Source: an uncultured archaeon
GTDB lineage: Archaea > Altiarchaeota > Altiarchaeia > IMC4 > SCGC-AAA252-I15
Assembly: GCA_964423225.1 (NCBI GenBank)
Contig: CAYREE010000001.1
Location: 17,419-81,418, forward strand
Direction: 5' to 3'
Length of the DNA: 64,000 bases
Under the pieces are notes generated by a model, which was not told where the DNA came from, ran no database searches, and worked only from the letters and a program-made list of their open reading frames with translations. Both the position numbers and the translations under genes were made by a program. Below, one piece after another: positions 34,260 to 62,576 of this stretch (position 1 is its first letter; the number at the start of each line of letters is the position of its first letter).

Positions 34260-34937
34260 TTAGCAGATCGACAGGTTCCCAGTACTGCATAATATTCTTG
34301 TGAGAGAATCCCGATCCTGTAGGTTACAATAGGCTTTTTCACCTACAACTATACAGGGAAACTCTGAAACACCATACACCTTCAACAATACATTTACTGA
34401 AGGAAGATCCAAGTCCGCGTCAAAGCTAAACACTGCAATCTCAGAGTCTATCCGCTGATTAAAATAATTCAATACATACGCCTGCTGGTCACAATATTCA
34501 CAATCCTCTCCATTCCTATAGAAAAAGAGTATTTCAGTCTGTTTTAAATCGCATTTCCTCTTCAACTGTTTTAGTATCGAAAGATAAATTACTTCCTGAC
34601 GATTGAACTTCTCCTTCTGAATCTGATAATATGGATCATCCAAGTATTCGCTCGTCAACTCGCGATAAGAATCGATTTTTTCCCCAAGCTTCCAAATCTT
34701 CGTGTCTAAAACTCCCAGCTGAGATTTCAATGCAATACAACTAATATTCTCGCCGTAAACAGTCATCAGCATGTTCAAGGCCTGTATCTCCTCAAATTCC
34801 TCGAGAATATCGGACATGCGCTCATCCAATGCATCTTCGCGAAGAGTATGCAGATATACATTCAATGAATACACGCTGACAAAAATCACCAAGGTTATGA
34901 TAAATGCCTTGATGAATATTGAACCTTCTACCTCCAC
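34260..34937 (-). CDS. Membrane-anchored coiled-coil plus thioredoxin-fold protein (partner A of a GT2 synthase)
   Basis: One TM helix (AFIITLVIFVSVYSL), a helical region, then a Trx-like region: FFYRNGEDCEYCDQQA (CxxC) ... EFPCIVVG (cis-Pro-like). The GTG at 34937 with AAGGAGG 7 nt upstream is preferred over the TTG at 34967. It overlaps the GT2 stop by 10 nt. Confidence 0.5.
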   Translation of the reverse strand: MEVEGSIFIKAFIITLVIFVSVYSLNVYLHTLREDALDERMSDILEEFEEIQALNMLMTVYGENISCIALKSQLGVLDTKIWKLGEKIDSYRELTSEYLDDPYYQIQKEKFNRQEVIYLSILKQLKRKCDLKQTEILFFYRNGEDCEYCDQQAYVLNYFNQRIDSEIAVFSFDADLDLPSVNVLLKVYGVSEFPCIVVGEKAYCNLQDRDSLTRILCSTGNLSIC

Positions 34938-36175
34938 TTGATCTGCCTCCTTCGAAGAACAGTACAAAATGAATTAATCCAGAATATCTGATAAAACACG
35001 ACAAAAAAAACATATCCAATAAAACCGAGGATATTCTCCCTCACCCGCCTTCCAAGAGTATTAAAACTAATTTTAGTAAGGATGATTGTAATCAATATCA
35101 TTGTGAAAGCAAGAGTTGTGAATATATCAAGTAGTAATAAGTCTAGCTCATAGGTAAAACTAATATGAGACAAGTCAAAGTTTACTAACCATAAATAATT
35201 TATATTCTCTACAACCTTTGAAGAAAACAAGTAGACTGAATACATGAATAAAGACATGCCAAGAGTAATCAACGCGTAATTATAAGGTATGTAAAATCCG
35301 AAGAGCCCCATCTTCTTGTTGAAAATCATATTCTTATGCTGCCATACAGTCAACAGCGATCCAGAATACCATCTCTTACGCTGCTTGAATAAGGCCTTAA
35401 AATTTGATGGGACATTCGTTAACACACATGTAGCCAAACAGAATGTGAGTTTGTATCCTGCTTTCTGCATCCTAAATGCTATCTCCAAGTCTTCCACAAT
35501 ATTATCTTCGTCAAAACCGCCAAGCTTCTGAATAACTTCTTTTCGATAGATGCTAAACGGTCCTGGAGTTACATGCATTATCCCAAGAAATGAGAGGATC
35601 TTTAATGCTATTGATAATCCGACAACATATTCGACGTCAATGACTCTTTCAATGATATTAGTGGGTTTTCGGACGACCACGCGGACACTCACCGATCCCA
35701 TCAATTCATCATCAAAATAACCCACAGTCTTAGATAGGATATCTGATCTAACAACACTATCACCGTCCATGCATGCGATCAATTCCCCGGAAGCGATTCT
35801 GATAGCCTCGTTCAAGCTTGCTGCCTTGCCCTTGTTTTCCAATCTATCGATGAATCTAACATGTAAGAATGGATTATCTTCAATAAAGCCTTTGATAAGC
35901 TTTCCTGAATTGTCAGTTGAACCATCATTGACAACTATTATCTCATAACAGTCATGTGGATAATCGATCTTTGAAAGTGATTCTAAAGCTGTGAGAATAC
36001 CTGACTCCTCATTTAATACGGGAAGAATAATGCTTACCATAGGTAGATCGGTTTTTTTAAACCGATAGGAATTCAATTGTCTTCTTTTTTCAAAAAGGAT
36101 AAGTAACATAGAGACTATGAAAAATGTCGACATAAACCAGACAGTCAAAACCATCGTCGAATAGATTATATTCAT
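34928..36175 (-). CDS. Integral-membrane family-2 glycosyltransferase, processive synthase type (D, DxD, ED, QxxRW)
   Basis: Motifs present: VSIILPVLNEE, VVNDGSTDNS, CMDGDSVV, IVEDLEIAFR and FKQRKRWYSGS. TM helices flank the catalytic domain. Confidence 0.75.
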   Translation of the reverse strand: MNIIYSTMVLTVWFMSTFFIVSMLLILFEKRRQLNSYRFKKTDLPMVSIILPVLNEESGILTALESLSKIDYPHDCYEIIVVNDGSTDNSGKLIKGFIEDNPFLHVRFIDRLENKGKAASLNEAIRIASGELIACMDGDSVVRSDILSKTVGYFDDELMGSVSVRVVVRKPTNIIERVIDVEYVVGLSIALKILSFLGIMHVTPGPFSIYRKEVIQKLGGFDEDNIVEDLEIAFRMQKAGYKLTFCLATCVLTNVPSNFKALFKQRKRWYSGSLLTVWQHKNMIFNKKMGLFGFYIPYNYALITLGMSLFMYSVYLFSSKVVENINYLWLVNFDLSHISFTYELDLLLLDIFTTLAFTMILITIILTKISFNTLGRRVRENILGFIGYVFFVVFYQIFWINSFCTVLRRRQIKWR

Positions 36176-36239
36176 CTCAAATACGCCTTATTAGATAAGA
36201 CAATCCAATTTATTAATAGAGTTTGTGTGATAAGCAAAG

Positions 36240-36806
36240 ATGTCTAAAAAATCATTTGAGATAAAGCGTCAATTGATGCATATGACAGGAGGCATCATCA
36301 TAAGCATCCTGGCATTATTCATAAAACCCGTCATCGGAGTTCTTGTCATATTCCCAGTAATTGGTGGGATAATCGTCTTTCTATCAATACCCCGGATGTT
36401 CCCGCAGATAAAAGCACATCATCACCTCCTCTATCACTTCGAAAGAAAAGAGGATTTAGAGAAATTCCCATACAAAGGCGCGATATTTTTCGGAATAGGC
36501 ATCCTGTTCCCACTGATCCTGCTTCCAACAAAGCCGGCAGTAGCAGTGATATTGATACTAAGCGTTGGAGACGCCTTCTCCACGATGATAGGGAAAACCT
36601 CAAGGCTAAAAATCCATCAGGGAAAATCGATTGAAGGACTCGCAGCTTTCATCATATCAAGCATTATTGCTTCTTCAATGATAGTAGACATTAAAACCGC
36701 CCTAGTATTCTCAGTTACAGGCGGTATAATTGAATTATTCGCTAAGATAAACGACAATATAGCAATTCCAGCAGCATTGAGCATATTATATATCCTAATA
36801 GTCTAG
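36240..36806 (+). CDS. Dolichol kinase / CDP-alcohol-related cytidylyltransferase-family membrane protein
   Basis: 188 aa, polytopic. SVGDAFSTMIGK resembles the SEC59/CdsA-family motif. Confidence 0.5.
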   Translation: MSKKSFEIKRQLMHMTGGIIISILALFIKPVIGVLVIFPVIGGIIVFLSIPRMFPQIKAHHHLLYHFERKEDLEKFPYKGAIFFGIGILFPLILLPTKPAVAVILILSVGDAFSTMIGKTSRLKIHQGKSIEGLAAFIISSIIASSMIVDIKTALVFSVTGGIIELFAKINDNIAIPAALSILYILIV

Positions 36807-36836
36807 ATGAATCCAGATAGACTATCTGTTTTTTTC
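36798..36836 (+). terminator. Inverted repeat plus T-run between convergent genes
   Basis: ATAGTCTA-n12-TAGACTAT (perfect 8-bp arms), followed by CTGTTTTTTT. Confidence 0.4.
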
Positions 36837-38096
36837 CCAGATATTCTTATGTCCCTCAAGCCTCTTGAACGGATTAGCCTCGTTGAAAAAAGGCAGTATG
36901 AAAAACAAGAGGGTAATTAGAAAGTAGGGGAAAAAGAAGATTATGGCGAAAAGCACTTTCAGATTAATCCGCCTCATCTTAACAGCAGCAAAAACATGAT
37001 AAAATGTCGTGAGAATCCAGGAGGTTATGAAAATCGGGAATGTTGGCGGCATCTCCCAGATTCCAGTATATACGTTATAGATGAATTCTAATGTCCCAAG
37101 CTGGCTCGACCAACCGATAAAATACTTTACAACATAAATGTTCAGGTATACTCCTTTACTGATAAAATACTCGAAATACCCCCGTAATATCTGATATAAG
37201 GTTAGAGGTATTATCATGAATCCCTGAATGAAAAAATAGATTTGATTCGGCATCCCATACAAGCCAACCAAACCATGCTTTGGATTCAATAACATATCAT
37301 TATGCTTCCTAATAACCTGGATAGTACCCCTACCCCATCTAATCCGCTGTTTTGCAATACCAAATAATGTTTGTGGAACATTCGTATACATCACAGCCTT
37401 AGACATAACGATACGATAACCCTTCTTCCTAATCCCAAGACCAATATCAAAATCCTCAGATAAAGTATCAATAGAAAATCCCCCAACCGCTTCAAGAGCC
37501 CTCCGCCTTACCGCGCAAAAACCAGGAAGCATATAATTAGTACCAATCTTGTCGAAAACATAACGCCACATAGAGCTTAAAGCATACTCAAAATCCTGAT
37601 ACCAGACAAGAGGATTCCTATTAGAGACAACAGAAATGATGCCAGAAACCGCCCCAACCCCCCCATCCTCAAAAGGCTCGGCCATACGCTTTAACGCGTC
37701 TTTATCAAGCTGTGAATCAGCATCCAGAAACAATATGACCTCGCCTGAAGATTCTGCTACACCCCGGTTTACAGCCATTGCCTTACCGACATGATCTGTT
37801 TCAACAAGCCTTAAATCCTTGTGTTTTTTAGCAAGTTTTTTTACGATATTACCAGTATCATCTTTTGATCCGTCATTTACAACCACAACATCTATTTTAC
37901 CCGGATATCCTGAATCATAGACGCTTTCAATAGTCTCACCAATAACACTCGCCTCATCGTGTGCTGGAATAACAATAGAAAGATCAGGATGATATCCTTT
38001 CTTCAACTTTCGATCGGGGGCTAATGCTATCAGATTCCACGGTACGAATGTTATGATTGATATCGTGAAAATTAATCCGAGTACCTCATTTATCAT
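36822..38096 (-). CDS. Integral-membrane family-2 glycosyltransferase, processive synthase type
   Basis: Motifs present: LSIVIPAHDEA, VVNDGSKDDT, LFLDADSQL, LSEDFDIGLG and AKQRIRWGRGT. The C-terminus has several TM helices. Confidence 0.75.
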   Translation of the reverse strand: MINEVLGLIFTISIITFVPWNLIALAPDRKLKKGYHPDLSIVIPAHDEASVIGETIESVYDSGYPGKIDVVVVNDGSKDDTGNIVKKLAKKHKDLRLVETDHVGKAMAVNRGVAESSGEVILFLDADSQLDKDALKRMAEPFEDGGVGAVSGIISVVSNRNPLVWYQDFEYALSSMWRYVFDKIGTNYMLPGFCAVRRRALEAVGGFSIDTLSEDFDIGLGIRKKGYRIVMSKAVMYTNVPQTLFGIAKQRIRWGRGTIQVIRKHNDMLLNPKHGLVGLYGMPNQIYFFIQGFMIIPLTLYQILRGYFEYFISKGVYLNIYVVKYFIGWSSQLGTLEFIYNVYTGIWEMPPTFPIFITSWILTTFYHVFAAVKMRRINLKVLFAIIFFFPYFLITLLFFILPFFNEANPFKRLEGHKNIWEKNR

Positions 38097-38120
38097 CTTT
38101 AAGATTATTTGACAGAATGC

Positions 38121-38855
38121 CTATAGCTTGGTTGAATTAACTATTAAATTATCTTCCTTTGTTTTATTCTCACATATCGAAAGATGAGGTGAATATTCAC
38201 ATAAATTAGTGGTTAATCCTGTTTTATCCATTAAGCCACAATGAGTATTCCCTTCAATAACAAGACACGGTAATTTATCCACATTATATGCATCCATTAA
38301 TGTCTTTACTGCTTGAACATCCCTATCAGCATCGAAGCTGAAGATGGTTAGCTCAGGATCAATCTGCTCGTTGATATATGAAAGGACAAAGCCCTGCTGA
38401 CCACAACGCTTATCCTGCTTACAATTCCCATAGAAATAAAGAATGATCGTCTGATTGTATACACACTGCGCCCTAACCTTTGAGATCATGGAAAACTGTA
38501 TTAGGGCACGCCGATTCAACCTGCGTTTTTCACGAAGATAAAACTCTTCCCCCCCAAAATCCTGGACAACCTCATAATACTCCTTTATCTTATTGTCAAG
38601 CTTCCAAAGACGCTGCTCAAGATAATTCAACTGTTTTATCAATGCATCACAAGAGGCATTATGCTCTTTTAGATGTTCCATCAGATAATACGAGCTCTCA
38701 ATATCTTCAAAATCCTCTAAAACATCATCCATCTTAGATACCACGACTTCCTCCCTGTTCTCATCCATGATATTATTGGTATATTTCAATACCGAAAAAA
38801 GAAGGATGGTTAATATCCCAGCCGTCAAAAAAATCTTTACATTCCCGCTCTCCAT
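38121..38855 (-). CDS. Membrane-anchored coiled-coil plus thioredoxin-fold protein (partner C, paralog of 34260..34937)
   Basis: One TM helix, a helical region, then LYFYGNCKQDKRCGQQG ... KLPCLVIEG, alignable along its length with partner A. The ATG at 38855 is preferred over 38900. It overlaps the GT2 stop. Confidence 0.5.
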   Translation of the reverse strand: MESGNVKIFLTAGILTILLFSVLKYTNNIMDENREEVVVSKMDDVLEDFEDIESSYYLMEHLKEHNASCDALIKQLNYLEQRLWKLDNKIKEYYEVVQDFGGEEFYLREKRRLNRRALIQFSMISKVRAQCVYNQTIILYFYGNCKQDKRCGQQGFVLSYINEQIDPELTIFSFDADRDVQAVKTLMDAYNVDKLPCLVIEGNTHCGLMDKTGLTTNLCEYSPHLSICENKTKEDNLIVNSTKL

Positions 38856-40105
38856 TTTACCTCTTTTCCAAAAGCTACAAAATACATGCTCAAAACCCAC
38901 ATTATTTGATATGGGATGAAAAACAACATGAAACCGATAAAACCAGTGATATTATCACGTATCCTATGGCCAATACTCTTTAACGCAATATAGGATACTA
39001 TTGCATTCAATGCCATTGGAGTCAAACCCAATAGATGATACATGCTAAGATAATTGAAATCCCATTCGAAATGCTTCTGCGCAAAAAGTACTTGTGAGAC
39101 TATATCGAAGTCTATTAGATTCATATTAGACAATGCAATATTCGTATTAGACATGATAATCACCAGAAACGAGAATGAAAGCAGGCATGCAAGAATGGTT
39201 CCGCCATAATTGACTGGAATGAAATACATGCCAAAAGTACCAAGTCTAGGATTTAAAATAACGTCCCGATGCTTTAATATCGTCTGCATTGTACCAGTAT
39301 ACCATCTCTTACGCTGATAATAAAAATCCTTGAGAGTGGAGGGTACAACAGTGTAAGCAGTTGCTTGAGTGCATACTGCAATATTCATACCCTTCTTATT
39401 CATCCTGTATGCAAGCTCCATATCCTCGACAAGATTATCCTTGTCAAAGCCGCCTATCTCCAAGACGCGATCTTTAATATATATGCTGAACTGGCCGGGT
39501 GTCACAAACATACAGTTTAGGAAAGTCCAGATCTTATTGTAAAAAGCATTTGCAAGCGCATATTCGATGGCGATAACTTTTTGGATGATGTTTTTAGCAT
39601 CCTTAACATAGATCGAGGCTGTTACAGCCGCAACATCCCTTCCTTGAAAATAAGGGAGTGTCCTATGTATGATATCAGGCTCGATGACAGTGTCTGCATC
39701 AATACAGGCAACATATTTCGTCTTAGCATGCTTGATACCCAGGTTCAATGCCTCAGCCTTTCCCTGGTTCGGATTGTTTTCAAGATATATGATCTTTCCC
39801 TCATCTGAAAACTCCTTGCATATCTCTCCAGTACGATCTTTCGACCCATCATTAACAACTATTATATCAAGCTTATCACTGGGATAATCCAGTTTTAAAG
39901 TGGATTCTATGGTATTAGCGATATTATCCTCCTCGTTATATGCGGGGATAATCACTGATACCGCTACGATATCCCCTGTTTTTCGAGGTAGTTGTTCATG
40001 AAACTCTCGTTTATTACGTATGAAAGTGACTAAAGACAACATAAAGAAGAATGTGAGTATGAACCATACAACATACAACAAGGTTAGATGTATTATAGAC
40101 GTCAT
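38837..40105 (-). CDS. Integral-membrane family-2 glycosyltransferase, processive synthase type (closest paralog of 34928..36175)
   Basis: Motifs present: VSVIIPAYNEE, VVNDGSKDRT, CIDADTVI, LVEDMELAYR and YYQRKRWYTGT. Confidence 0.75.
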   Translation of the reverse strand: MTSIIHLTLLYVVWFILTFFFMLSLVTFIRNKREFHEQLPRKTGDIVAVSVIIPAYNEEDNIANTIESTLKLDYPSDKLDIIVVNDGSKDRTGEICKEFSDEGKIIYLENNPNQGKAEALNLGIKHAKTKYVACIDADTVIEPDIIHRTLPYFQGRDVAAVTASIYVKDAKNIIQKVIAIEYALANAFYNKIWTFLNCMFVTPGQFSIYIKDRVLEIGGFDKDNLVEDMELAYRMNKKGMNIAVCTQATAYTVVPSTLKDFYYQRKRWYTGTMQTILKHRDVILNPRLGTFGMYFIPVNYGGTILACLLSFSFLVIIMSNTNIALSNMNLIDFDIVSQVLFAQKHFEWDFNYLSMYHLLGLTPMALNAIVSYIALKSIGHRIRDNITGFIGFMLFFIPYQIMWVLSMYFVAFGKEVKWRAGM

Positions 40106-40211
40106 TTTAATTCAATAAGATCAATAATTGCCCTTATTGATAGGTACACCTCCTTTAATAATAATATGGTAGGATGATAAAAACGCGATATTTAAAAGCC
40201 CTATGGAAAAA

Positions 40212-41345
40212 TCAGTCCTTGCCAATTGAGTCCTCAATAGCTTTTCTAATAATCTCAGAGCCTGAAATATTTTCACTCATCATACGATATTCCAATGCTT
40301 TTTCCCTAAAAGAATCATCATCCAGTAGAAGACGTATCTTATCGACTAGTTCATCAGCCTTAACTGAATAACTCATTTTAAAACCAAGCCCCCGATCCTG
40401 TACTACAGAGGCATTATTCTCCTGTTCATTATGTGAGATATCAGGAAATGATAATAATGGCACCCCAAGAGATAAACATTCCATAATAGTTGAATGTCCG
40501 CCACTTGTTATCACACAATCAGAAGCTTTGATGAAAGGCAGTGGATCATCAAGATATTGTTTTACAATAATATTATCAGGAAGGCATTGAAGCTCCTTCT
40601 CAGAAATACTGGGACCAAGAATAAACGTGTAATTAATCGATGGATCTATTTCTGCTGCCTCAACAACCTTTTCAAACGCTTTTTTCCTATATCCAAAACC
40701 ACCCATCATCGACAATACATGGGGTCTGCCAAGGTTAATATCCTTTATCTCAGAATATTTATTACGTACTAGAGGACCAGTAAAAATACTCTTATCCCTA
40801 AGCCTTTGATGTGGATTCAAATTCCTACAACATATCGTATGTGGATCAGGATAGTCAGGTATGAATATGCCATCAGTCCTATTGAAGATATTCACATAGA
40901 ATTTCTCTGCCATACCACCTAATACTCGGATTATCATACCATTATTTTGAAAGAATTGTCTCATATCAGTCTGATTAGAAGTTGCATAGACCGGGATTTT
41001 CTTCAGGATAGAGGCGATTATCCCAGTGTAATAAAGATCAGATATTACAATATCAGGATTGAATTCCTTAAGTATGCCTAATGTCCGGGGTGTTGATAGG
41101 ATTTTCACATTTGTCACTGTAGACCTTATTGAACGCCCCATATCCAATCTACCAGCATCTCCTAAAAGCACGATTTCAGGCGATAAGACAGGTACTTTCC
41201 CACCTTCAGCTTCTAGAATATCCTTGGAATAACCATAACCAGCATAAATAACTTCATGTCCCTGGGCAACAAGATGTCGACCGATTGTAATGCACCGAGT
41301 CGTATGACCCAAACCTTCACCGCAGACAAATATCAATACACGCAC
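40212..41345 (-). CDS. GT-B fold glycosyltransferase (GT1/GT28, MGT/MurG-like)
   Basis: Contains MRVLIFVCGEGLGHTTRCITIGRHLVAQGHEV and the C-terminal SGGHSTIMECLSLGVPLLSFP. Confidence 0.65.
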   Translation of the reverse strand: MRVLIFVCGEGLGHTTRCITIGRHLVAQGHEVIYAGYGYSKDILEAEGGKVPVLSPEIVLLGDAGRLDMGRSIRSTVTNVKILSTPRTLGILKEFNPDIVISDLYYTGIIASILKKIPVYATSNQTDMRQFFQNNGMIIRVLGGMAEKFYVNIFNRTDGIFIPDYPDPHTICCRNLNPHQRLRDKSIFTGPLVRNKYSEIKDINLGRPHVLSMMGGFGYRKKAFEKVVEAAEIDPSINYTFILGPSISEKELQCLPDNIIVKQYLDDPLPFIKASDCVITSGGHSTIMECLSLGVPLLSFPDISHNEQENNASVVQDRGLGFKMSYSVKADELVDKIRLLLDDDSFREKALEYRMMSENISGSEIIRKAIEDSIGKD

Positions 41346-42066: not shown

Positions 42067-42693
42067 TCAATCATCCTTTATACAAGTGTATTGAATATAG
42101 GGGTGTGTGTGATACTTGGACTTATATCCGGATCTAGTGATTTTATGAATCTTGAATCCTGGATTCAATAATAAGGGCCTTACTTCTTCTTCCGTATAGT
42201 AAGCATAGAATTTTTCCCTATCGTATCTCTTGTCGAGCTCGAAACCTTCACCCTTCCCTTCCTTGAATGAAATATTCATTACCCCATTTTTTTTCAATAT
42301 TCGATATACATTTTCGATGATTCTACCTGCATGACTTTTCTCAACACAGAATATACTTGCTCCAAACCAGGCCCCGTCAAACAATTCATCAGGAAATGAT
42401 AATTTTCGAAAATCCATGACTTGGAAGTCTGCTTTAGGGGCTATTAATCTAGCTTTTACAATGGTTTTCTTAGATAAATCAATTCCTGTGACTCTCAGAC
42501 CATGACCTGTGAAAAACAATGCATCCCTTCCGGGACCGCATCCTATATCGATTATCCAGGCTTTTTTAGGAAGCATGTTGATGAATTCTTCTCTTTTTTT
42601 AATCTGAGCAGGTTCAAGATCCTTTGTTAATTCATGATACTTTTCAACAGTCTCATCATAAGCTTTAATATTCTTTCTAGAAAGCTTGTCCAT
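42067..42693 (-). CDS. Class I SAM-dependent methyltransferase
   Basis: Motif I IIDIGCGPGRDALFF; 208 aa. Confidence 0.7.
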   Translation of the reverse strand: MDKLSRKNIKAYDETVEKYHELTKDLEPAQIKKREEFINMLPKKAWIIDIGCGPGRDALFFTGHGLRVTGIDLSKKTIVKARLIAPKADFQVMDFRKLSFPDELFDGAWFGASIFCVEKSHAGRIIENVYRILKKNGVMNISFKEGKGEGFELDKRYDREKFYAYYTEEEVRPLLLNPGFKIHKITRSGYKSKYHTHPYIQYTCIKDD

Positions 42694-42738
42694 GAAGATA
42701 ATTTGGCTGTAAAAAGTATAATAAACAAGTCGAAAAAG

Positions 42739-44169
42739 TCAGATATCCTTAATACGTTTAGATGTAATCTTTTGAGATAAAACTGTTAGCATGAGACCGA
42801 GGAATACAAGGTAAAATGCGTCTATATTAAATCTTAATCTCTGGGGTGTTGGTACAAGCATGCCTGCTATTCCTAGAAGAATAATTGATAAAAGCATGTA
42901 TGCTAGGGTTGTGGAAAATGCATTAGGATTCTTGTATATCTTCTCCTGTATAAGAACATGGATTGTATAGACAAGGAGGAATGGCACGCCAATAATCAAT
43001 AGCCAGGAAATCCTTGAATAACCAAGCTGCCAGAAAAACAATAGATTATACAACCTATCCACAGTACTTATCTTTTTATAATTCACATCTTCACTTGAAT
43101 CGAATGGATATACCCAGTTCGAAGAAGGTAAGAAATAACGATAATAATTCTTGAAGATGACCATCAAGGTATCAACAGGTTTTTTTCCCATGAATATTAG
43201 AGCATCATCTAGATAACGATTTGAATATGTGAGATATTTGATGTGATTATGGTTCGAGTAGCCGTTAGACTTATATTCTTCGTCTAGGATAGCGACACCA
43301 TACATTTCAGGAAAGCCTGTATCCTTAATTCTGGTTAAATCAGGGGGATAAGGATCATTGAATAAGAGCATGCCAGGATAGCCGTGTTCCAGGATATAAT
43401 CTGTGCGAAAAGTCTCGGTACTATACCTTTGTATCATATCAGCTATATTAGATCCAAAAATATGTGAGGAGAAACTCAATAATCCAAAAAGCATGAAATG
43501 TTTGATGTAGATAAGAGTAAGGACTATGAAGGGTATTGAACATGCAATAAGGGTTTGCCTAGCTAGTCTGCGATTAGATGCAAATAGAAAAATGATGATG
43601 AATATAAACCAAAATAGATGAAAATATGCTCTTGTCAGACTGAGAATTCCTAGAGTCAAAAAGAATAATACACCAAAACCCATTTTTTCTTCAGTTAAAA
43701 ACTTATGTAGAAATAATGCAGATAATGTCAGGAATACAGCGACGATATAGCCATATGATAACCAGTTCTCATAGAGAACAACAGACGGGCTTGACATGAA
43801 TAATATGACAAGTATAGAAGATATCCACTGGTTTACCCCAAGTCGAATCATCAATAAAAAGAGGGCTACTGTCCAGATCAACCCCAAAACCAGATAGATG
43901 AGGAAAAAGGCCGAGGGATAATGAAATGGAAAGGCTTTTAATACTAATCCTAGAAACAGGTTATAGCCTGGCGGCTGACTCTGCAAATAAAACAGGCTCT
44001 CCAGAAGATTAGTCTGTAAAAGGATTGGATCGATATACTGCCAGTAATAGTGTATCGTCTCATAATCAAAAGAGATGCCAAAAAAATAATAATAGAATAA
44101 ACGAGAGAGTAAGACTGCGGCCAAGGATATATACAAGGCTCGACTATTGTCTCTGTAAAACATTGCCAT
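42739..44169 (-). CDS. Polytopic membrane protein, possibly GT-C (ArnT/PMT-like)
   Basis: 476 aa with more than 10 TM helices and no diagnostic motif. Its start directly abuts the folP stop. Confidence 0.35.
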   Translation of the reverse strand: MAMFYRDNSRALYISLAAVLLSRLFYYYFFGISFDYETIHYYWQYIDPILLQTNLLESLFYLQSQPPGYNLFLGLVLKAFPFHYPSAFFLIYLVLGLIWTVALFLLMIRLGVNQWISSILVILFMSSPSVVLYENWLSYGYIVAVFLTLSALFLHKFLTEEKMGFGVLFFLTLGILSLTRAYFHLFWFIFIIIFLFASNRRLARQTLIACSIPFIVLTLIYIKHFMLFGLLSFSSHIFGSNIADMIQRYSTETFRTDYILEHGYPGMLLFNDPYPPDLTRIKDTGFPEMYGVAILDEEYKSNGYSNHNHIKYLTYSNRYLDDALIFMGKKPVDTLMVIFKNYYRYFLPSSNWVYPFDSSEDVNYKKISTVDRLYNLLFFWQLGYSRISWLLIIGVPFLLVYTIHVLIQEKIYKNPNAFSTTLAYMLLSIILLGIAGMLVPTPQRLRFNIDAFYLVFLGLMLTVLSQKITSKRIKDI

Positions 44170-60437: not shown

Positions 60438-62576
60438 GTGATGAAGTATAGTGAAACCCAGAAAGATATGTTGGTAGTATTCACAACATCTATGATCATA
60501 TACCTTGCCACCCTCAGCCCGACGATAACGGCAGGGGATGGTGGAGACCTAATAACAGCTGCATACACTCTTGGAATAGCTCACCCAGCAGGATATCCAC
60601 TATACACTATCCTTGGGCATGTGTTCACATTTATACCCTACGGTTCCATCGCATACAGGATCAATCTATTATCTGCGTTTGCAGCATCATTAACAGCAGT
60701 GCTTTCATGCCTGACAATCAAACTCTTAACCAAGAACAGGTATTCTGCAATAGGTGGTGGATTAATACTAGCTTTCTCACAGAACCTTTGGAATCAGGCA
60801 GTAATCGCTGAAACATATACACTGAACGCATTCTTCATTGCACTTATGGCATACCTCACAGTAAAATGGAGTATTAAAAAAGATGTTAGATACCTATACT
60901 ATCTTGCATTTTCATTCGGCATCGGACTAACAAATCATGTATCACTAATAATGGTGCTTCCAGCATTCATCTATCTAATATACATGCTTTCGAAAAAATC
61001 CAAGAAAAAAATAAAGAATAATACAATAGTAAAATGCATTGGCTATATGCTACTTGGACTGATGTTATACTTGTATCTACCGATACGCGCATCAATGGAT
61101 CCGGTCTACAACTGGGCAGACCCAAGCACAATAGAAAGGTTCATAAGCCATGTGACAGGATCAGTCCACCGTCAACTTTATGCATATCCTCAAGCCGACG
61201 TGGATGTGGCCGAGAGATCTGGAGAGGTTTTAACACTCTTGTTCAATCAGTATTCTATACTATGGCTGCTTGTTATAATCGGTTACAAACAAATCAAGAA
61301 GTCTCGAGAGTTCATGATATTCACCCTAATCTTCTTTGCATCAGATTTTTTATACACTGTTTTTTTGAATACAATCTCCCTTGAGATAACAGCATTTCAG
61401 ATACCGACCACGGTTATCGCAAGCATATGGATCGGTTACGGACTAAAGGGAGTTTTTGATCGGTTCAAGATCAAGAAAAAAAGCGATAAGGTATGGATAA
61501 TACTACTTGTCCTCTTAATCATCCCAATCATCTTGAATTACAGTACAAACAACTATCGGAACAACCTGATAGCATACGACTACGGAGTGAATATACTAAA
61601 TACTCTAGAGGATGATGCAGTCATATTCGCTGAAGGAGACAACAATATCTTGATATTATATTATCTATTGTATGCTGAGGGCATGCGAGAAGACGTCACA
61701 TTAATTGAACAGACAGGTTTCCTAAGCCATGAGATCTATGGGATAGACTACTTATACCTGCCTGAAAGCCAACACCTAGAAAGACAAGATGAGATAGAGG
61801 CAAAATACATTTATTCAGACAGACCAGTCTACTACACAGTCAAACGAGACTTCAGTGCATATCCAGATAAAAAAATAGTGCAAGAAGGATTAGTCTTCAA
61901 GGTTATCGATAAAGAGGTGGAACATACACCCAAATATTATTGGGATTCATACACTTTTAGAGGAGCGGACGACAACTCTATCAGCAAAGACTATATGACA
62001 AACGACGTTATCGCAACATACTTTATCCGAAAAGGAGAATACCATTTCAGTCTAAACGAAATAGAAGATGCGATCAAAGAATTCAAAAAAGCAAGCTCTT
62101 ATGCACAAGATAATCCAGTAGTTGCATACAACCTAGGAAACATCTATCTGAAAGCAAAGATGCCAGAAGAAGCTATAACAGAATACCATAAAGCATTGAA
62201 GGCAAACCTATTTGATTCAAAACTCCATAACAACCTCGGATACGCTTATCTGAGTAATGGAGAGATCACAAAGGCTAAACTAGAATACTTAAATGCCATC
62301 AAAATAGATCCCACAAATCTTAGAGCACGACTTAATATCGCAGGTATATTATACCAAGAAGGTAATTTAAACGATGCAGTAATGGAATACAACCTGATAA
62401 TAAAACAGGATCCGACATATGCTACCGCCTACCGAAACCTGGGTGAAATCCTATATAGGGCAGGATTAAAGCAGAAAGCAGCGAAAGTATTCATTGATTA
62501 CCTCGAACTTAGGCCAAATACCCCTGAAACTGACAGGTTAAAAGCAAGGATTGCAGAAGGAGCTGAAACAACGTAA
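60438..62576 (+). CDS. DUF2723-type (PMT/GT-C-like) membrane glycosyltransferase with C-terminal TPR repeats
   Basis: The ITAGDGGDLITAAYTLGIAHPAGYPLYTILG signature is followed by about 10 TM helices. The C-terminus has 4-5 TPR units (AYNLGNIY..., HNNLGYAY..., YRNLGEIL...). Confidence 0.65.
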   Translation: MMKYSETQKDMLVVFTTSMIIYLATLSPTITAGDGGDLITAAYTLGIAHPAGYPLYTILGHVFTFIPYGSIAYRINLLSAFAASLTAVLSCLTIKLLTKNRYSAIGGGLILAFSQNLWNQAVIAETYTLNAFFIALMAYLTVKWSIKKDVRYLYYLAFSFGIGLTNHVSLIMVLPAFIYLIYMLSKKSKKKIKNNTIVKCIGYMLLGLMLYLYLPIRASMDPVYNWADPSTIERFISHVTGSVHRQLYAYPQADVDVAERSGEVLTLLFNQYSILWLLVIIGYKQIKKSREFMIFTLIFFASDFLYTVFLNTISLEITAFQIPTTVIASIWIGYGLKGVFDRFKIKKKSDKVWIILLVLLIIPIILNYSTNNYRNNLIAYDYGVNILNTLEDDAVIFAEGDNNILILYYLLYAEGMREDVTLIEQTGFLSHEIYGIDYLYLPESQHLERQDEIEAKYIYSDRPVYYTVKRDFSAYPDKKIVQEGLVFKVIDKEVEHTPKYYWDSYTFRGADDNSISKDYMTNDVIATYFIRKGEYHFSLNEIEDAIKEFKKASSYAQDNPVVAYNLGNIYLKAKMPEEAITEYHKALKANLFDSKLHNNLGYAYLSNGEITKAKLEYLNAIKIDPTNLRARLNIAGILYQEGNLNDAVMEYNLIIKQDPTYATAYRNLGEILYRAGLKQKAAKVFIDYLELRPNTPETDRLKARIAEGAETT

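Follow-up and report, generated by a model that had tools for sequence, protein, structure and literature searches.

Two closely comparable systems are the poly-beta-1,6-GlcNAc synthases IcaA-IcaD of staphylococci and PgaC-PgaD of E. coli, in which the gene for a small membrane partner lies directly downstream of the family 2 glycosyltransferase (GT2) gene. The icaA and icaD genes share 31 nt, and the deacetylase gene icaB comes next; the deacetylase of the Pga system is pgaB. In bacterial cellulose synthase, BcsA is paired with BcsB, a single-TM-anchored extracytoplasmic subunit with alpha/beta (flavodoxin-like) domains whose TM helix packs on the synthase. In Streptomyces, the GT2 synthase CslA is co-transcribed with GlxA, a membrane-anchored extracytoplasmic redox protein needed for glycan deposition, and in the MatAB system PNAG is made by MatB, in which a deacetylase is fused to a GT2. 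A thioredoxin-fold subunit can also serve a glycosyltransferase complex, as Ost3/Ost6 do in the eukaryotic oligosaccharyltransferase. The QxxRW motif is present in non-processive lipid glycosyltransferases of the GT21 type as well as in synthases. PcManGT, an archaeal membrane GT2 from Pyrobaculum calidifontis (6yv7) with a reduced cellulose-synthase-like fold, reportedly appeared in a 2020 J Mol Biol paper as a mannosyltransferase that depends on dolichol phosphate and has three TM helices and a "minimal cellulose-synthase-like fold". We know of no thioredoxin-fold partner reported for PcManGT.

In the window, the whole 64,000-nucleotide stretch of DNA analyzed here, which comes from an archaeon as the first-pass annotation had supposed, two membrane GT2s are each encoded together with a protein predicted to carry a thioredoxin fold outside the cell. 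No description of such a pairing was found in the literature searched, and the two proteins probably make up a new kind of two-component machine that builds a cell-surface glycan. The genes concerned are the following.

PartA, 34260..34937, minus strand: about 225 aa; predicted signal-anchor TM helix, helical stalk and thioredoxin-fold domain (CEYC, cis-Pro FPC)
GT2_A, 34928..36175, minus strand: 415-aa membrane GT2, synthase type; N-terminal TM helix, GT-A domain, QRKRW, C-terminal TM helices
188-aa polytopic membrane protein, 36240..36806, plus strand: conserved; enzyme-like invariant set (GD...KSxEG, DDN)
GT2_B, 36822..38096, minus strand: 424-aa membrane GT2, synthase type; QRIRW; without a partner gene of its own
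PartC, 38121..38855, minus strand: 244 aa; predicted TM helix, three long helices and thioredoxin fold with C-x6-C, cis-Pro LPC
GT2_C, 38837..40105, minus strand: 422-aa membrane GT2, synthase type; QRKRW
GT-B glycosyltransferase, 40212..41345, minus strand: MJ1255/VC2487-like; N-terminal region with GEGLGH; next gene upstream of GT2_C
476-aa polytopic membrane protein, 42739..44169, minus strand: weak GT-C (PMT_2) resemblance; 2.6 kb upstream; link to the module uncertain

The Glycosyltransferases

The three GT2s and the motifs quoted for them in the first-pass annotation (FKQRKRW, AKQRIRW and YYQRKRW) are all present, and in a family alignment of 40 sequences D86, D136xD138, E227-D228 and Q264-R265-x-R267 are invariant, with W268 conserved in at least 90%. 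The ED...QRxRW segment aligns with TEDAE...QRGRW of BcsA. Pfam Glyco_tranf_2_3 and Glyco_trans_2_3 match GT2_A, and among NCBIfam models PgaC_IcaA scores highest with each of the three proteins, over nearly its full length, at 160.5 bits for GT2_A (model positions 9-384 of 407), 150.9 for GT2_B and 183.2 for GT2_C, all far short of the 422-bit equivalog cut-off. Glyco_transf_21, the ceramide glucosyltransferase family, matches all three (E = 1e-10 to 1e-17) with scores much below those of Glyco_tranf_2_3 or PgaC_IcaA, and it is also among the precomputed domains of relatives. Relatives retrieved by tblastn are annotated as pgaC, icaA or "bifunctional polysaccharide deacetylase/GT2" (25-30% identity, 74-90% of length); GT2_C itself shares 25-29% identity with PgaC and IcaA across 77-90% of length.

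Grouping with synthase-type GT2s, and not with polyprenyl-phosphate sugar synthases of the GtrB/ArnC/DPMS type, is supported by these comparisons. Matches to GtrB, ArnC and DPMS are confined to the first half of the GT-A domain, the ArnC model yields only 26-44 bits against 151-183 for PgaC_IcaA, and in the GT2 tree ArnC branches as a very remote outgroup, so the clustering with non-processive dolichyl-phosphate sugar synthases that the first-pass annotation had considered was not seen. The AlphaFold2 model of GT2_C (pLDDT 91.4) has PcManGT as its top Foldseek match (E = 2e-17, target-normalised TM 0.71), with hyaluronan synthase (TM up to 0.69), BcsA and the chitin synthase Chs1 among further matches. 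QxxRW had been taken as the mark of a processive synthase; the motif is there, but it is not proof of processivity, since both it and a cellulose-synthase-like fold also occur in PcManGT. About four TM helices are all that the modeled GT2 has; a channel would need more, or a contribution from the partner or oligomerisation, which counts against a synthase.

The Partner Proteins

PartA and PartC are paralogues, as had been proposed (36% identity, E = 1e-52), and each overlaps its GT2 gene, but the overlaps of 40 and 64 nt first given shrink to 10 and 19 nt at the likely starts. PartA likely begins at GTG 34937, with GGAGG 8 nt upstream (the longest ORF begins at TTG 34967), and PartC at ATG 38855, preceded by GAGGT. 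The overlaps include the stop codons of GT2_A and GT2_C, respectively, and the Shine-Dalgarno-like motifs of both partner genes sit within the 3' ends of the GT2 genes. GT2_B begins 24 nt past PartC.

The proposed plan of one TM helix, a helical region and a thioredoxin-like domain is borne out by modeling. PartC is identical to a 244-aa database protein (P0001), whose AlphaFold2 model (pLDDT 82.4) matches thioredoxins in Foldseek with probability 1.0 and TM 0.6-0.77, confirming the predicted fold. The motifs read CEYC...FPCIVV in PartA and C-x6-C...LPCLVI in PartC; PartA has a weak Pfam TraF match (28.9 bits) along with weak TraF/TrbB matches, and the TraF match is absent from PartC in the same family search. 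An N-in/C-out, outward-facing orientation is indicated by charge bias: the flank N-terminal to the helix has a net charge of +2.8 and the C-terminal flank -0.5, with the N-flank more positive in 50 of 53 proteins. Pointing the same way, C69 and C131 are invariant in all 82 partner sequences, and some members have Pro/Thr/Glu-rich C-terminal tails. Most members retain CxxC and the cis-Pro. The CxxC is displaced to C-x5/6-C in 28 of the 82 and lost in 8, which makes a redox role common to all members unlikely. The partner shows no similarity to PgaD or IcaD.

Distribution and Co-inheritance

Adjacency of a GT2 and a thioredoxin-like gene, which the first-pass annotation had suggested surveying, is conserved: a GT2 gene lies immediately upstream on the same strand in 53/53 partner genes examined, 36 of the pairs overlapping by 4-19 nt and 14 having a gap of 0-60 nt. 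This pairing is far beyond chance. Pairwise identities of partners and GT2s are correlated (rho = 0.81), and partner-associated GT2s, GT2_A among them, form a single clade in the GT2 tree (SH-aLRT 97), which by these sequence measures shows the two genes to be co-inherited. GT2_B falls in a separate clade (SH-aLRT 98) within an unresolved group that includes PgaC/IcaA; the placement of BcsA in this tree is a long-branch artefact. The notion of a duplicated module of synthase and co-subunit fits GT2_A and GT2_C and leaves out GT2_B, which has no partner of its own.

Nearly every relative retains the pairing, as do most archaea of the Woesearchaeota type and some of the ultra-small bacteria. The partner occurs in 45 of 61 Altiarchaeota genomes, including all 13 of high quality, and in 228 of 301 from the Woesearchaeota phylum; on the bacterial contigs that carry it, the pair sits among housekeeping genes without GT-C nearby. 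Near universality in small genomes suggests a core envelope function for the module and not an accessory exopolysaccharide system. Besides the two pairs in the window, the host genome has a third on contig 128, and the three belong to different subtypes. Across Altiarchaeota, GT2_C, the partner, GT2_B and the small polytopic enzyme-like protein make up the conserved unit, and a GT2_B-type gene follows the partner gene in all 11 loci of this type (L004-L014). About six bacterial proteins fuse the partner to a PIG-L deacetylase, and at one Woesearchaeota-type locus (L058) the downstream GT-C is fused to a CE4 deacetylase.

Neighboring Genes

The 188-aa protein had been labeled dolichol-kinase-like, a weak label for a protein with no Pfam or PDB match. 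It has orthologues in 9 Altiarchaeota loci with 34 invariant columns, and one of ten orthologues matches CTP_transf_1 (E = 0.0037); a PF01148 search of the host genome returns another gene, and hhalign gives a probability of 7% against the genome's CarS-like protein. A relationship to polyprenol kinases or CTP-transferases is possible. The GT-B gene (150.9 bits with TIGR00661, whose cut-off is 195.9) is real, but it adjoins the cluster, just outside its range, rather than being interleaved as claimed. No homologue was found in related loci, so it is not a conserved neighbor of the module. A preprint on Agl24 reports a GGxGGH motif, and in it an Altiarchaeales clade stands beside the Agl24 branch. 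The 476-aa protein has a PMT_2 match of E = 1.4 (0.004 at genome scale, below cut-off), and by BLAST it does not resemble the GT-C genes flanking the Woesearchaeota modules.

Proposed Function and Alternatives

In the reading that fits best, which is about as likely as not, GT2 and partner form a synthase of the IcaAD/PgaCD kind that makes a GlcNAc-type surface glycan, the partner being a new class of co-subunit. The GT2, its cytoplasmic GT-A domain (D, DxD, ED, QRxRW) framed by one N-terminal and about three C-terminal TM helices, would use a nucleotide sugar to polymerise a beta-linked sugar, for which GlcNAc or another HexNAc is the likeliest candidate, and would move the product across the membrane. 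Made by coupled translation and then inserted N-in/C-out, the partner would pack its single TM helix on the small synthase in the role of the IcaD, PgaD or BcsB TM helices, and its disulfide-stapled helical stalk would position the thioredoxin-fold head above the exit site. The head could receive or escort the product or recruit modifying enzymes such as deacetylases, and the CxxC may also perform thiol-disulfide chemistry on a surface target. A resemblance of the GT2s to PNAG synthases is shown by the PgaC_IcaA model, the tblastn relatives, the Foldseek matches and the BcsA motif alignment. The gene layout, the evolution of GT2 and partner as a unit, the outward-facing partner, and the bacterial pair that stands alone without GT-C all argue for a synthase, and the deacetylase fusions link the module to outer-face GlcNAc deacetylation. 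Counting against it are PcManGT as top structural match, QxxRW together with Glyco_transf_21, the conserved neighbors, the far sub-cut-off PgaC_IcaA scores, a partner unlike PgaD/IcaD and the displacement or loss of its CxxC in part of the family.

The conserved neighbors, GT-C enzymes and a possible polyprenol-kinase-like protein, would also fit a lipid-linked pathway. In the main alternative, of less than even likelihood, the GT2s would be PcManGT-like non-processive glycosyltransferases dependent on polyprenol (dolichol) phosphate, which load a sugar onto Dol-P or extend a Dol-P(P)-linked glycan by a single residue, the short membrane domain serving as a lipid-binding half-tunnel. The product would be flipped and then used extracellularly by the GT-C enzymes encoded nearby, with the partner in the outer-face machinery, perhaps holding cysteine-containing substrates like Ost3/Ost6. 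GT-C enzymes are indeed near the module in 27/52 loci, a PMT_2/Alg9-like one lying directly downstream of the partner in 22, and 23/52 have on the upstream side two more polytopic genes that resemble GT-C or STT3. Partner paralogues even sit between GT-C-like genes without a GT2 (L041-L043), and 61 PMT_2-type matches in the host genome imply a large-scale need for lipid-linked sugar donors; near core-gene status in small genomes and the Altiarchaeota neighbor fit as well. Yet the GT2s match PgaC/IcaA at full length and GtrB, ArnC and DPMS only in part, bacterial versions lack GT-C neighbors, translational coupling ties the partner to GT2 rather than GT-C, the kinase assignment is weak, and a partner-deacetylase fusion is more easily explained by a GlcNAc-containing product emerging alongside. 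It is improbable that the GT2s instead glycosylate membrane lipids, for instance archaeol or diether lipids, like GT21-type or processive glycolipid synthases, with the partner stabilising or regulating them. Lipid-scavenging DPANN archaea and CPR bacteria could remodel lipids in this way, and the Glyco_transf_21 matches, QxxRW and near universality in reduced genomes agree; but that family scores low, no linked lipid-synthesis genes were found at the module, and an outward disulfide-rich partner with extracytoplasmic deacetylase fusions is unexpected for cytoplasmic-face chemistry. Least probable, and very much so, is a DsbA/TlpA-like general thiol-disulfide oxidoreductase that merely shares an operon with the GT2. 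Its CxxC and cis-Pro, the TraF/TrbB matches of PartA and a DsbA-like gene adjoining the module in one bacterial locus would suit such a role, whereas invariant adjacency with overlapping stop and start codons in two domains of life, co-inheritance, a CxxC displaced or lost in 36/82 beside invariant stalk cysteines, and three host paralogues each with its own GT2 speak against it.

Comparison with Known Systems

Among thioredoxin-superfamily proteins, TlpA/ResA/CcmG, TraF/TrbB of F-type conjugation and Ost3/Ost6 share the fold, the CxxC (in PartA), the cis-Pro, an N-terminal membrane anchor and an outer-face location with the partner, which adds a stalk of three helices and about 100 residues, stapled by the invariant Cys pair, between anchor and fold. 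Ost3/Ost6 associate with a GT-C enzyme, whereas the partner pairs with a GT2. The first-pass statement that synthase partners are not thioredoxin-fold proteins needs a nuance, since in plants TTL proteins, which contain a thioredoxin-like domain, are associated on the cytosolic side with the complexes of cellulose synthase (PMC9668322), a topology not comparable to that of the outward-facing partner. The sequence match to PcManGT, which is nearest in structure, is restricted to the GT-A core (residues 48-242). BcsA has aligned catalytic motifs and a matching fold but differs in its eight TM helices and PilZ domain; BcsB differs from the partner in its C-terminal anchor, much larger size and unrelated fold. 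GlxA, a copper radical oxidase, is neither thioredoxin-fold nor homologous to the partner, and a Kocuria tblastn relative of the GT2s is annotated with the same deacetylase-GT2 fusion as MatB. Neither a PgaA/PgaB or IcaB/IcaC set nor a c-di-GMP module was found in the window, and IcaD/PgaD are not homologous to the partner with its one TM helix and extracytoplasmic stalk and thioredoxin fold of about 200 aa. IcaA and PgaC (407-441 aa) are alike in size and architecture to the GT2s and are their best family-model and annotated BLAST matches; in both settings a small membrane partner gene directly follows the GT2 gene, overlapping or abutting it, and the deacetylases encoded by icaB and pgaB have their counterparts in the PIG-L and CE4 fusions of relatives.

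Conserved Gene Pairs

Two of the three membrane GT2 glycosyltransferases encoded in this region, GT2_A and GT2_C, are each followed by a gene for a partner protein with a predicted thioredoxin fold, PartA and PartC, respectively. The genes of the region are arranged as listed.

Genes of the region, with window positions and strand
34260-34967, minus strand: open reading frame of PartA, the partner of GT2_A (likely start GTG 34937)
34928-36175, minus strand: GT2_A
36240-36806, plus strand: small polytopic protein, 188 aa
36822-38096, minus strand: GT2_B
38121-38900, minus strand: open reading frame of PartC, the partner of GT2_C (likely start ATG 38855)
38837-40105, minus strand: GT2_C
40212-41345, minus strand: GT-B glycosyltransferase

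The partner starts were chosen by homologues and Shine-Dalgarno-like motifs (GGAGG 8 nt before GTG 34937 for PartA and GAGGT before ATG 38855 for PartC). From these starts, PartA overlaps the GT2_A stop codon by 10 nt and PartC overlaps that of GT2_C by 19 nt. The first-pass annotation had described each partner as an overlapping gene and the two as paralogues, and their 36% identity agrees with the latter. An archaeal-TATA-box-like sequence, TTTTAAATAT, at 40188-40197 on the minus strand, 83-92 nt 5′ of the GT2_C start, suggests that GT2_C, PartC, and GT2_B may have a promoter of their own. The source assembly amounts to 2.45 Mb in 245 contigs at 84% completeness, and the window sequence is present in marine DNA metagenome runs only. 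Contig 128 of this genome carries a third GT2-partner pair (L003, 218-2121) of the canonical CxxC subtype (CTNC), the partner of which is without the four extra cysteines found in PartA and PartC. One genome holds three pairs of three subtypes.

The adjacency of GT2 and thioredoxin-like genes, first noticed in this window, is conserved in related genomes. A same-strand GT2 gene lies upstream of the partner gene in 53 of 53 cases, with an overlap of 4-19 nt in 36 pairs and a distance of at most 60 nt in 14. Among 31 loci from species genomes, the GT2 gene comes immediately before the partner wherever upstream sequence exists, and it does so in all 17 of the Woesearchaeota-phylum loci drawn from lower-scoring matches. 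Pairwise identities of the partners track those of the GT2s (rho = 0.81). No GT2-partner fusion occurs among the long open frames found in a search of 301 genomes of the Woesearchaeota phylum; those frames are partner paralogues with an extra C-terminal domain of ~490 aa and no GT2.

Partner proteins are widespread in these lineages. Of 61 Altiarchaeota genomes, 45 contain a match to the partner profile, among them all 13 rated high-quality. The profile also matches 228 of 301 genomes (0.5-1.8 Mb, mostly incomplete) taken as an even sample of the phylum to which a Woesearchaeota genome belongs. Searched against 1.84 billion representative proteins, the profile returns 1052 clusters at E ≤ 0.001, nearly all of 210-245 aa. 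One match, which NCBI lists as a Patescibacteria PIG-L deacetylase, is the partner fused to PIG-L. Partners C-terminally fused to a PIG-L family GlcNAc deacetylase are encoded at two loci (L061:8001-9428 and L064:7001-8416; proteins P0164 and P0192) on bacterial, Patescibacteria-labeled contigs, each with a GT2 gene immediately before it. The contig of the NCBI-listed fusion and two others bear bacterial genes (RecO, NusA, sigma-70, DnaG, MreBC, and RF-1), and on all three the GT2 gene immediately precedes the partner. In the GT2 tree, the bacterial sequences nest within the Woesearchaeota group (SH-aLRT 98), which points to exchange of the module between the two ultra-small kinds, Woesearchaeota-type archaea and CPR bacteria.

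GT2 Proteins

All three GT2s match the Pfam models Glycos_transf_2, Glyco_tranf_2_3, and Glyco_trans_2_3. The D / DxD / (T)ED / QxxRW set initially read from these proteins is confirmed: in an alignment of 40 sequences from relatives, D86, D136, D138, E227, D228, Q264, R265, and R267 never vary and W268 hardly does, and the stretch from ED to QRKRW pairs residue for residue with TEDAE...QRGRW of BcsA. Comparison with synthase families, a check proposed at the outset, favors them. PgaC_IcaA (TIGR03937) is the top NCBIfam model for each protein, at 160.5 bits for GT2_A, 150.9 for GT2_B, and 183.2 for GT2_C, scores that lie far below the equivalog cut-off of 422.3 bits, whereas models of polyprenyl-phosphate sugar transferases score much lower (ArnC 26-44 and AglJ 35-41 bits). 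The PgaC_IcaA match of GT2_A spans model positions 9-384 of 407. Against PDB sequences, matches to GtrB, ArnC, and DPMS are limited to the first half of the GT-A domain, and the match to BcsA runs from TM1 to QxxRW. Plasmid-borne relatives of GT2_C include a pgaC product (25% identity over 89% of the query), an icaA product (29% over 77%), and a Kocuria protein named bifunctional polysaccharide deacetylase/GT2 (30% over 74%).

The AlphaFold2 model of GT2_C (pLDDT 91.4, pTM 0.88) begins with an N-terminal TM helix, followed by the GT-A domain, a helix starting at the ED motif, a helix bearing QRKRW, and approximately three further, C-terminal TM helices, for a total of about four. In a Foldseek search of the PDB, Xenopus and Chlorella-virus hyaluronan synthases, BcsA, and yeast Chs1 are all matched with probability 1.0, at query-normalized TM scores of 0.69 or less. 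The first-ranked match is PcManGT, a Pyrobaculum calidifontis GT2 (6yv7) that fits equally well and that we take to be non-processive. By their motifs and the predicted fold of GT2_C, the three proteins can be assigned to the membrane-integrated synthase type (the BcsA/HAS/CHS/NodC/PgaC superfamily). Partner-associated GT2s form one clade in the tree (SH-aLRT 97), and GT2_B, which has no partner gene of its own, belongs to a separate clade (SH-aLRT 98) that sits with PgaC/IcaA in a group of unresolved branching. A placement of BcsA inside the partner-associated clade was discarded as a long-branch artifact (branch length 4.85).

Partner Proteins

Family models say little about the partners. 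PartA matches Pfam TraF at 28.9 bits (cut-off 23) across 66 residues only and NCBIfam TrbB at 28.7 bits (cut-off 132), a likeness at the level of fold only; PartC has no Pfam or NCBIfam match even at E = 10, and neither partner matches PgaD or IcaD in these scans. Structure prediction upholds the thioredoxin fold first suggested by short cysteine motifs. In the AlphaFold2 model of PartC (pLDDT 82.4), a helix extends from the membrane anchor up to residue 64, two further long helices occupy residues 69-98 and 103-130, and residues 136-221 form a beta-alpha-beta-alpha-beta-beta-alpha core. Foldseek aligns this domain with thioredoxins at probability 1.0 and target-normalized TM scores of 0.6-0.77, and the top 50 of 57 PDB matches at E ≤ 0.001 are thioredoxins or thioredoxin fusions or complexes.

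The cysteines vary more than the fold. PartA carries CEYC and FPC and PartC carries C-x6-C and LPC; among 82 family members, 46 have a canonical CxxC, 28 (including PartC) have C-x5/6-C, and 8 have neither, with the proline of the cis-Pro loop retained across the family. C69, at the start of helix 2, and C131, at the end of helix 3, are invariant in all 82, from which we infer a disulfide that staples the stalk. The mean net charge around the partner TM helix is +2.8 before and -0.5 after it, and 50 of 53 proteins have the more positive flank on the N-terminal side. This bias argues for a signal-anchored, N-in/C-out protein with its thioredoxin fold outside, and the Pro/Thr/Glu-rich tails and terminal Cys pairs of some relatives are compatible with that orientation. 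The extracytoplasmic loops of GT2_C hold no cysteine, so any CxxC chemistry of the partner would be aimed at something besides the synthase.

Neighboring Genes

Four genes form the conserved unit in Altiarchaeota: those for GT2_C, its partner, GT2_B, and the small polytopic protein. SRP54 and folC remain close by, as they do in the window, which marks the cluster as an old genomic region of vertical descent. In Woesearchaeota-type genomes, a GT-C enzyme (PMT_2/Alg9-like) usually comes after the pair (27 of 52 loci), and one or two polytopic proteins with weak PMT_2, DUF2079, or DUF6541 matches come before it (23 of 52). At L058 (3686-6148), the GT-C enzyme encoded just 3′ of the partner carries a fused CE4/DUF2334 polysaccharide deacetylase domain. 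Another such locus, L039 (2237-2880), has STT3/AglB, two small EamA-type proteins that are ArnE/F-like flippase candidates, and an epimerase 5′ of the GT-C-like genes and the pair. One lineage of the Woesearchaeota phylum has two tandem CxxC-less partner paralogues (L041:2388-5122, L042:2501-5247, and L043:2425-5190) that follow two GT-C-like genes, with no GT2 within 3 kb; the second paralogue bears a C-terminal domain of ~490 aa. The 2.45-Mb source genome itself has 61 matches to PMT_2, a GT-C family, of which ~54 score above the curated cut-off (for example at G000:C39:8072-8527, on contigs 51 and 3, and in the window at ~43516-43977 and ~60654-61049). Enzymes of this kind, which draw on lipid-linked sugars and work at the outer face, have thus expanded to an unusual extent here. 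Between folP and purN, and on their strand, window positions 42067-44169 (minus) encode a 476-aa polytopic protein and a SAM methyltransferase. The 476-aa protein, considered as a possible counterpart of the Woesearchaeota GT-C neighbors, has no BLAST similarity to them, and its PMT_2 match is sub-threshold.

Two neighbors lost the roles they had been given in the first-pass annotation. The small polytopic protein, labeled dolichol-kinase-like, has 34 invariant columns including GD...KSxEG, and it matched nothing when scanned together with nine orthologues against Pfam and NCBIfam or in a profile search of PDB sequences; one of 10 orthologues reaches CTP_transf_1 (PF01148) at a marginal E = 0.0037. 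Searching the genome with PF01148 leads to another gene, its only match of this type (L065:685-1206, contig 35), encoding a 173-aa CarS-like protein that is probably a CDP-archaeol synthase. The alignment of the two proteins by hhalign, around the GD motif, has a probability of 7%. With similarity that is marginal and at the level of a motif, the dolichol kinase name was dropped. The GT-B gene was excluded from the module because no related locus has a homologue of it. Its best model is TIGR00661 (MJ1255/VC2487) at 150.9 bits, below the cut-off of 195.9, and GEGLGH occupies residues 9-14. A preprint on Agl24 reports a GGxGGH motif as well as a clade of Altiarchaeales beside the Agl24 branch (10.1101/2021.01.19.427365), and this GT-B may therefore be a Dol-PP-GlcNAc GlcNAc-transferase.

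Readings of Function

GT2 and partner almost certainly function as one membrane unit with the thioredoxin fold outside. The nature of the product is a closer call. We hold with about even confidence that the pair makes a GlcNAc-type glycan as a synthase with its co-subunit, in the manner of IcaAD/PgaCD; the GT2 would be processive, and the partner would stand in for IcaD, PgaD, or BcsB. Similarity to PgaC/IcaA along the full length, a fold and motifs of the synthase type, an ica/pga-like gene layout, the stand-alone bacterial pairs, and two independent fusions to outer-face GlcNAc-deacetylase domains all favor this reading; the fusions, found in relatives, are also the one pointer, an indirect one, to poly-beta-1,6-GlcNAc as the product. 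A real but lesser possibility is that the GT2s are lipid-linked, non-processive, dolichol-phosphate-dependent enzymes. The rank of PcManGT, the few TM helices, the conserved GT-C neighbors, and the abundance of PMT_2-type proteins would all suit such a role, and the low ArnC and AglJ scores speak for the synthase families. That the GT2s are glycolipid synthases appears improbable. Still less credible is a partner that serves as a general oxidoreductase unrelated to the GT2; the constant gene order and correlated identities speak against it. Other explanations take up the small remainder.

Building on the synthase reading, a broader and rather doubtful proposal brings these features together. 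Altiarchaeota, Woesearchaeota-type DPANN archaea, and CPR bacteria would share a new class of obligatory co-subunit, acting with a minimal four-helix GT2 whose translocation path is completed by the partner TM helix. The stalk-mounted head might pass the nascent GlcNAc-type chain to deacetylases and to GT-C or STT3-like transferases, outer-face enzymes that would attach or remodel it, and synthase-dependent export would thereby be joined to lipid- or protein-directed GT-C chemistry in a hybrid pathway. In Altiarchaeota, GT2_C and GT2_B types could share one partner to give a mixed or primed polymer. The product would be the principal glycan in the envelope of these ultra-small cells.

Significance and Comparison with Known Systems

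DPANN archaea and CPR bacteria account for much of microbial diversity, and to our knowledge the chemistry of their envelopes is almost unknown. Altiarchaeota are biofilm formers. Retention of the pair in about three-quarters of the incomplete genomes of the Woesearchaeota phylum and in each of the 13 Altiarchaeota genomes of high quality, together with its exchange with CPR bacteria, makes it likely that the pair builds a central surface component for host attachment or biofilm formation. As a two-protein system of ~650 residues in total, it would provide a directly testable model for product translocation by very small synthases. The pair could also connect GT2s of the synthase type with GT-C glycosylation, a link that has not been described so far.

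The accessory subunits of synthase-dependent polysaccharide systems known to us are BcsB, PgaD/IcaD, and Alg44. Literature searches found no description of the GT2-partner pair, and, by term count, a survey of bacterial synthase-dependent operons never mentions thioredoxin-like partners (PMC7112194). Plant TTL proteins offer only a loose parallel to the partner (PMC9668322). With respect to the PgaC/IcaA systems, the partner resembles PgaD and IcaD in gene position only and shares no homology with them; if the synthase reading is true, the partner would represent a new type of accessory subunit for synthase-dependent polysaccharide systems.
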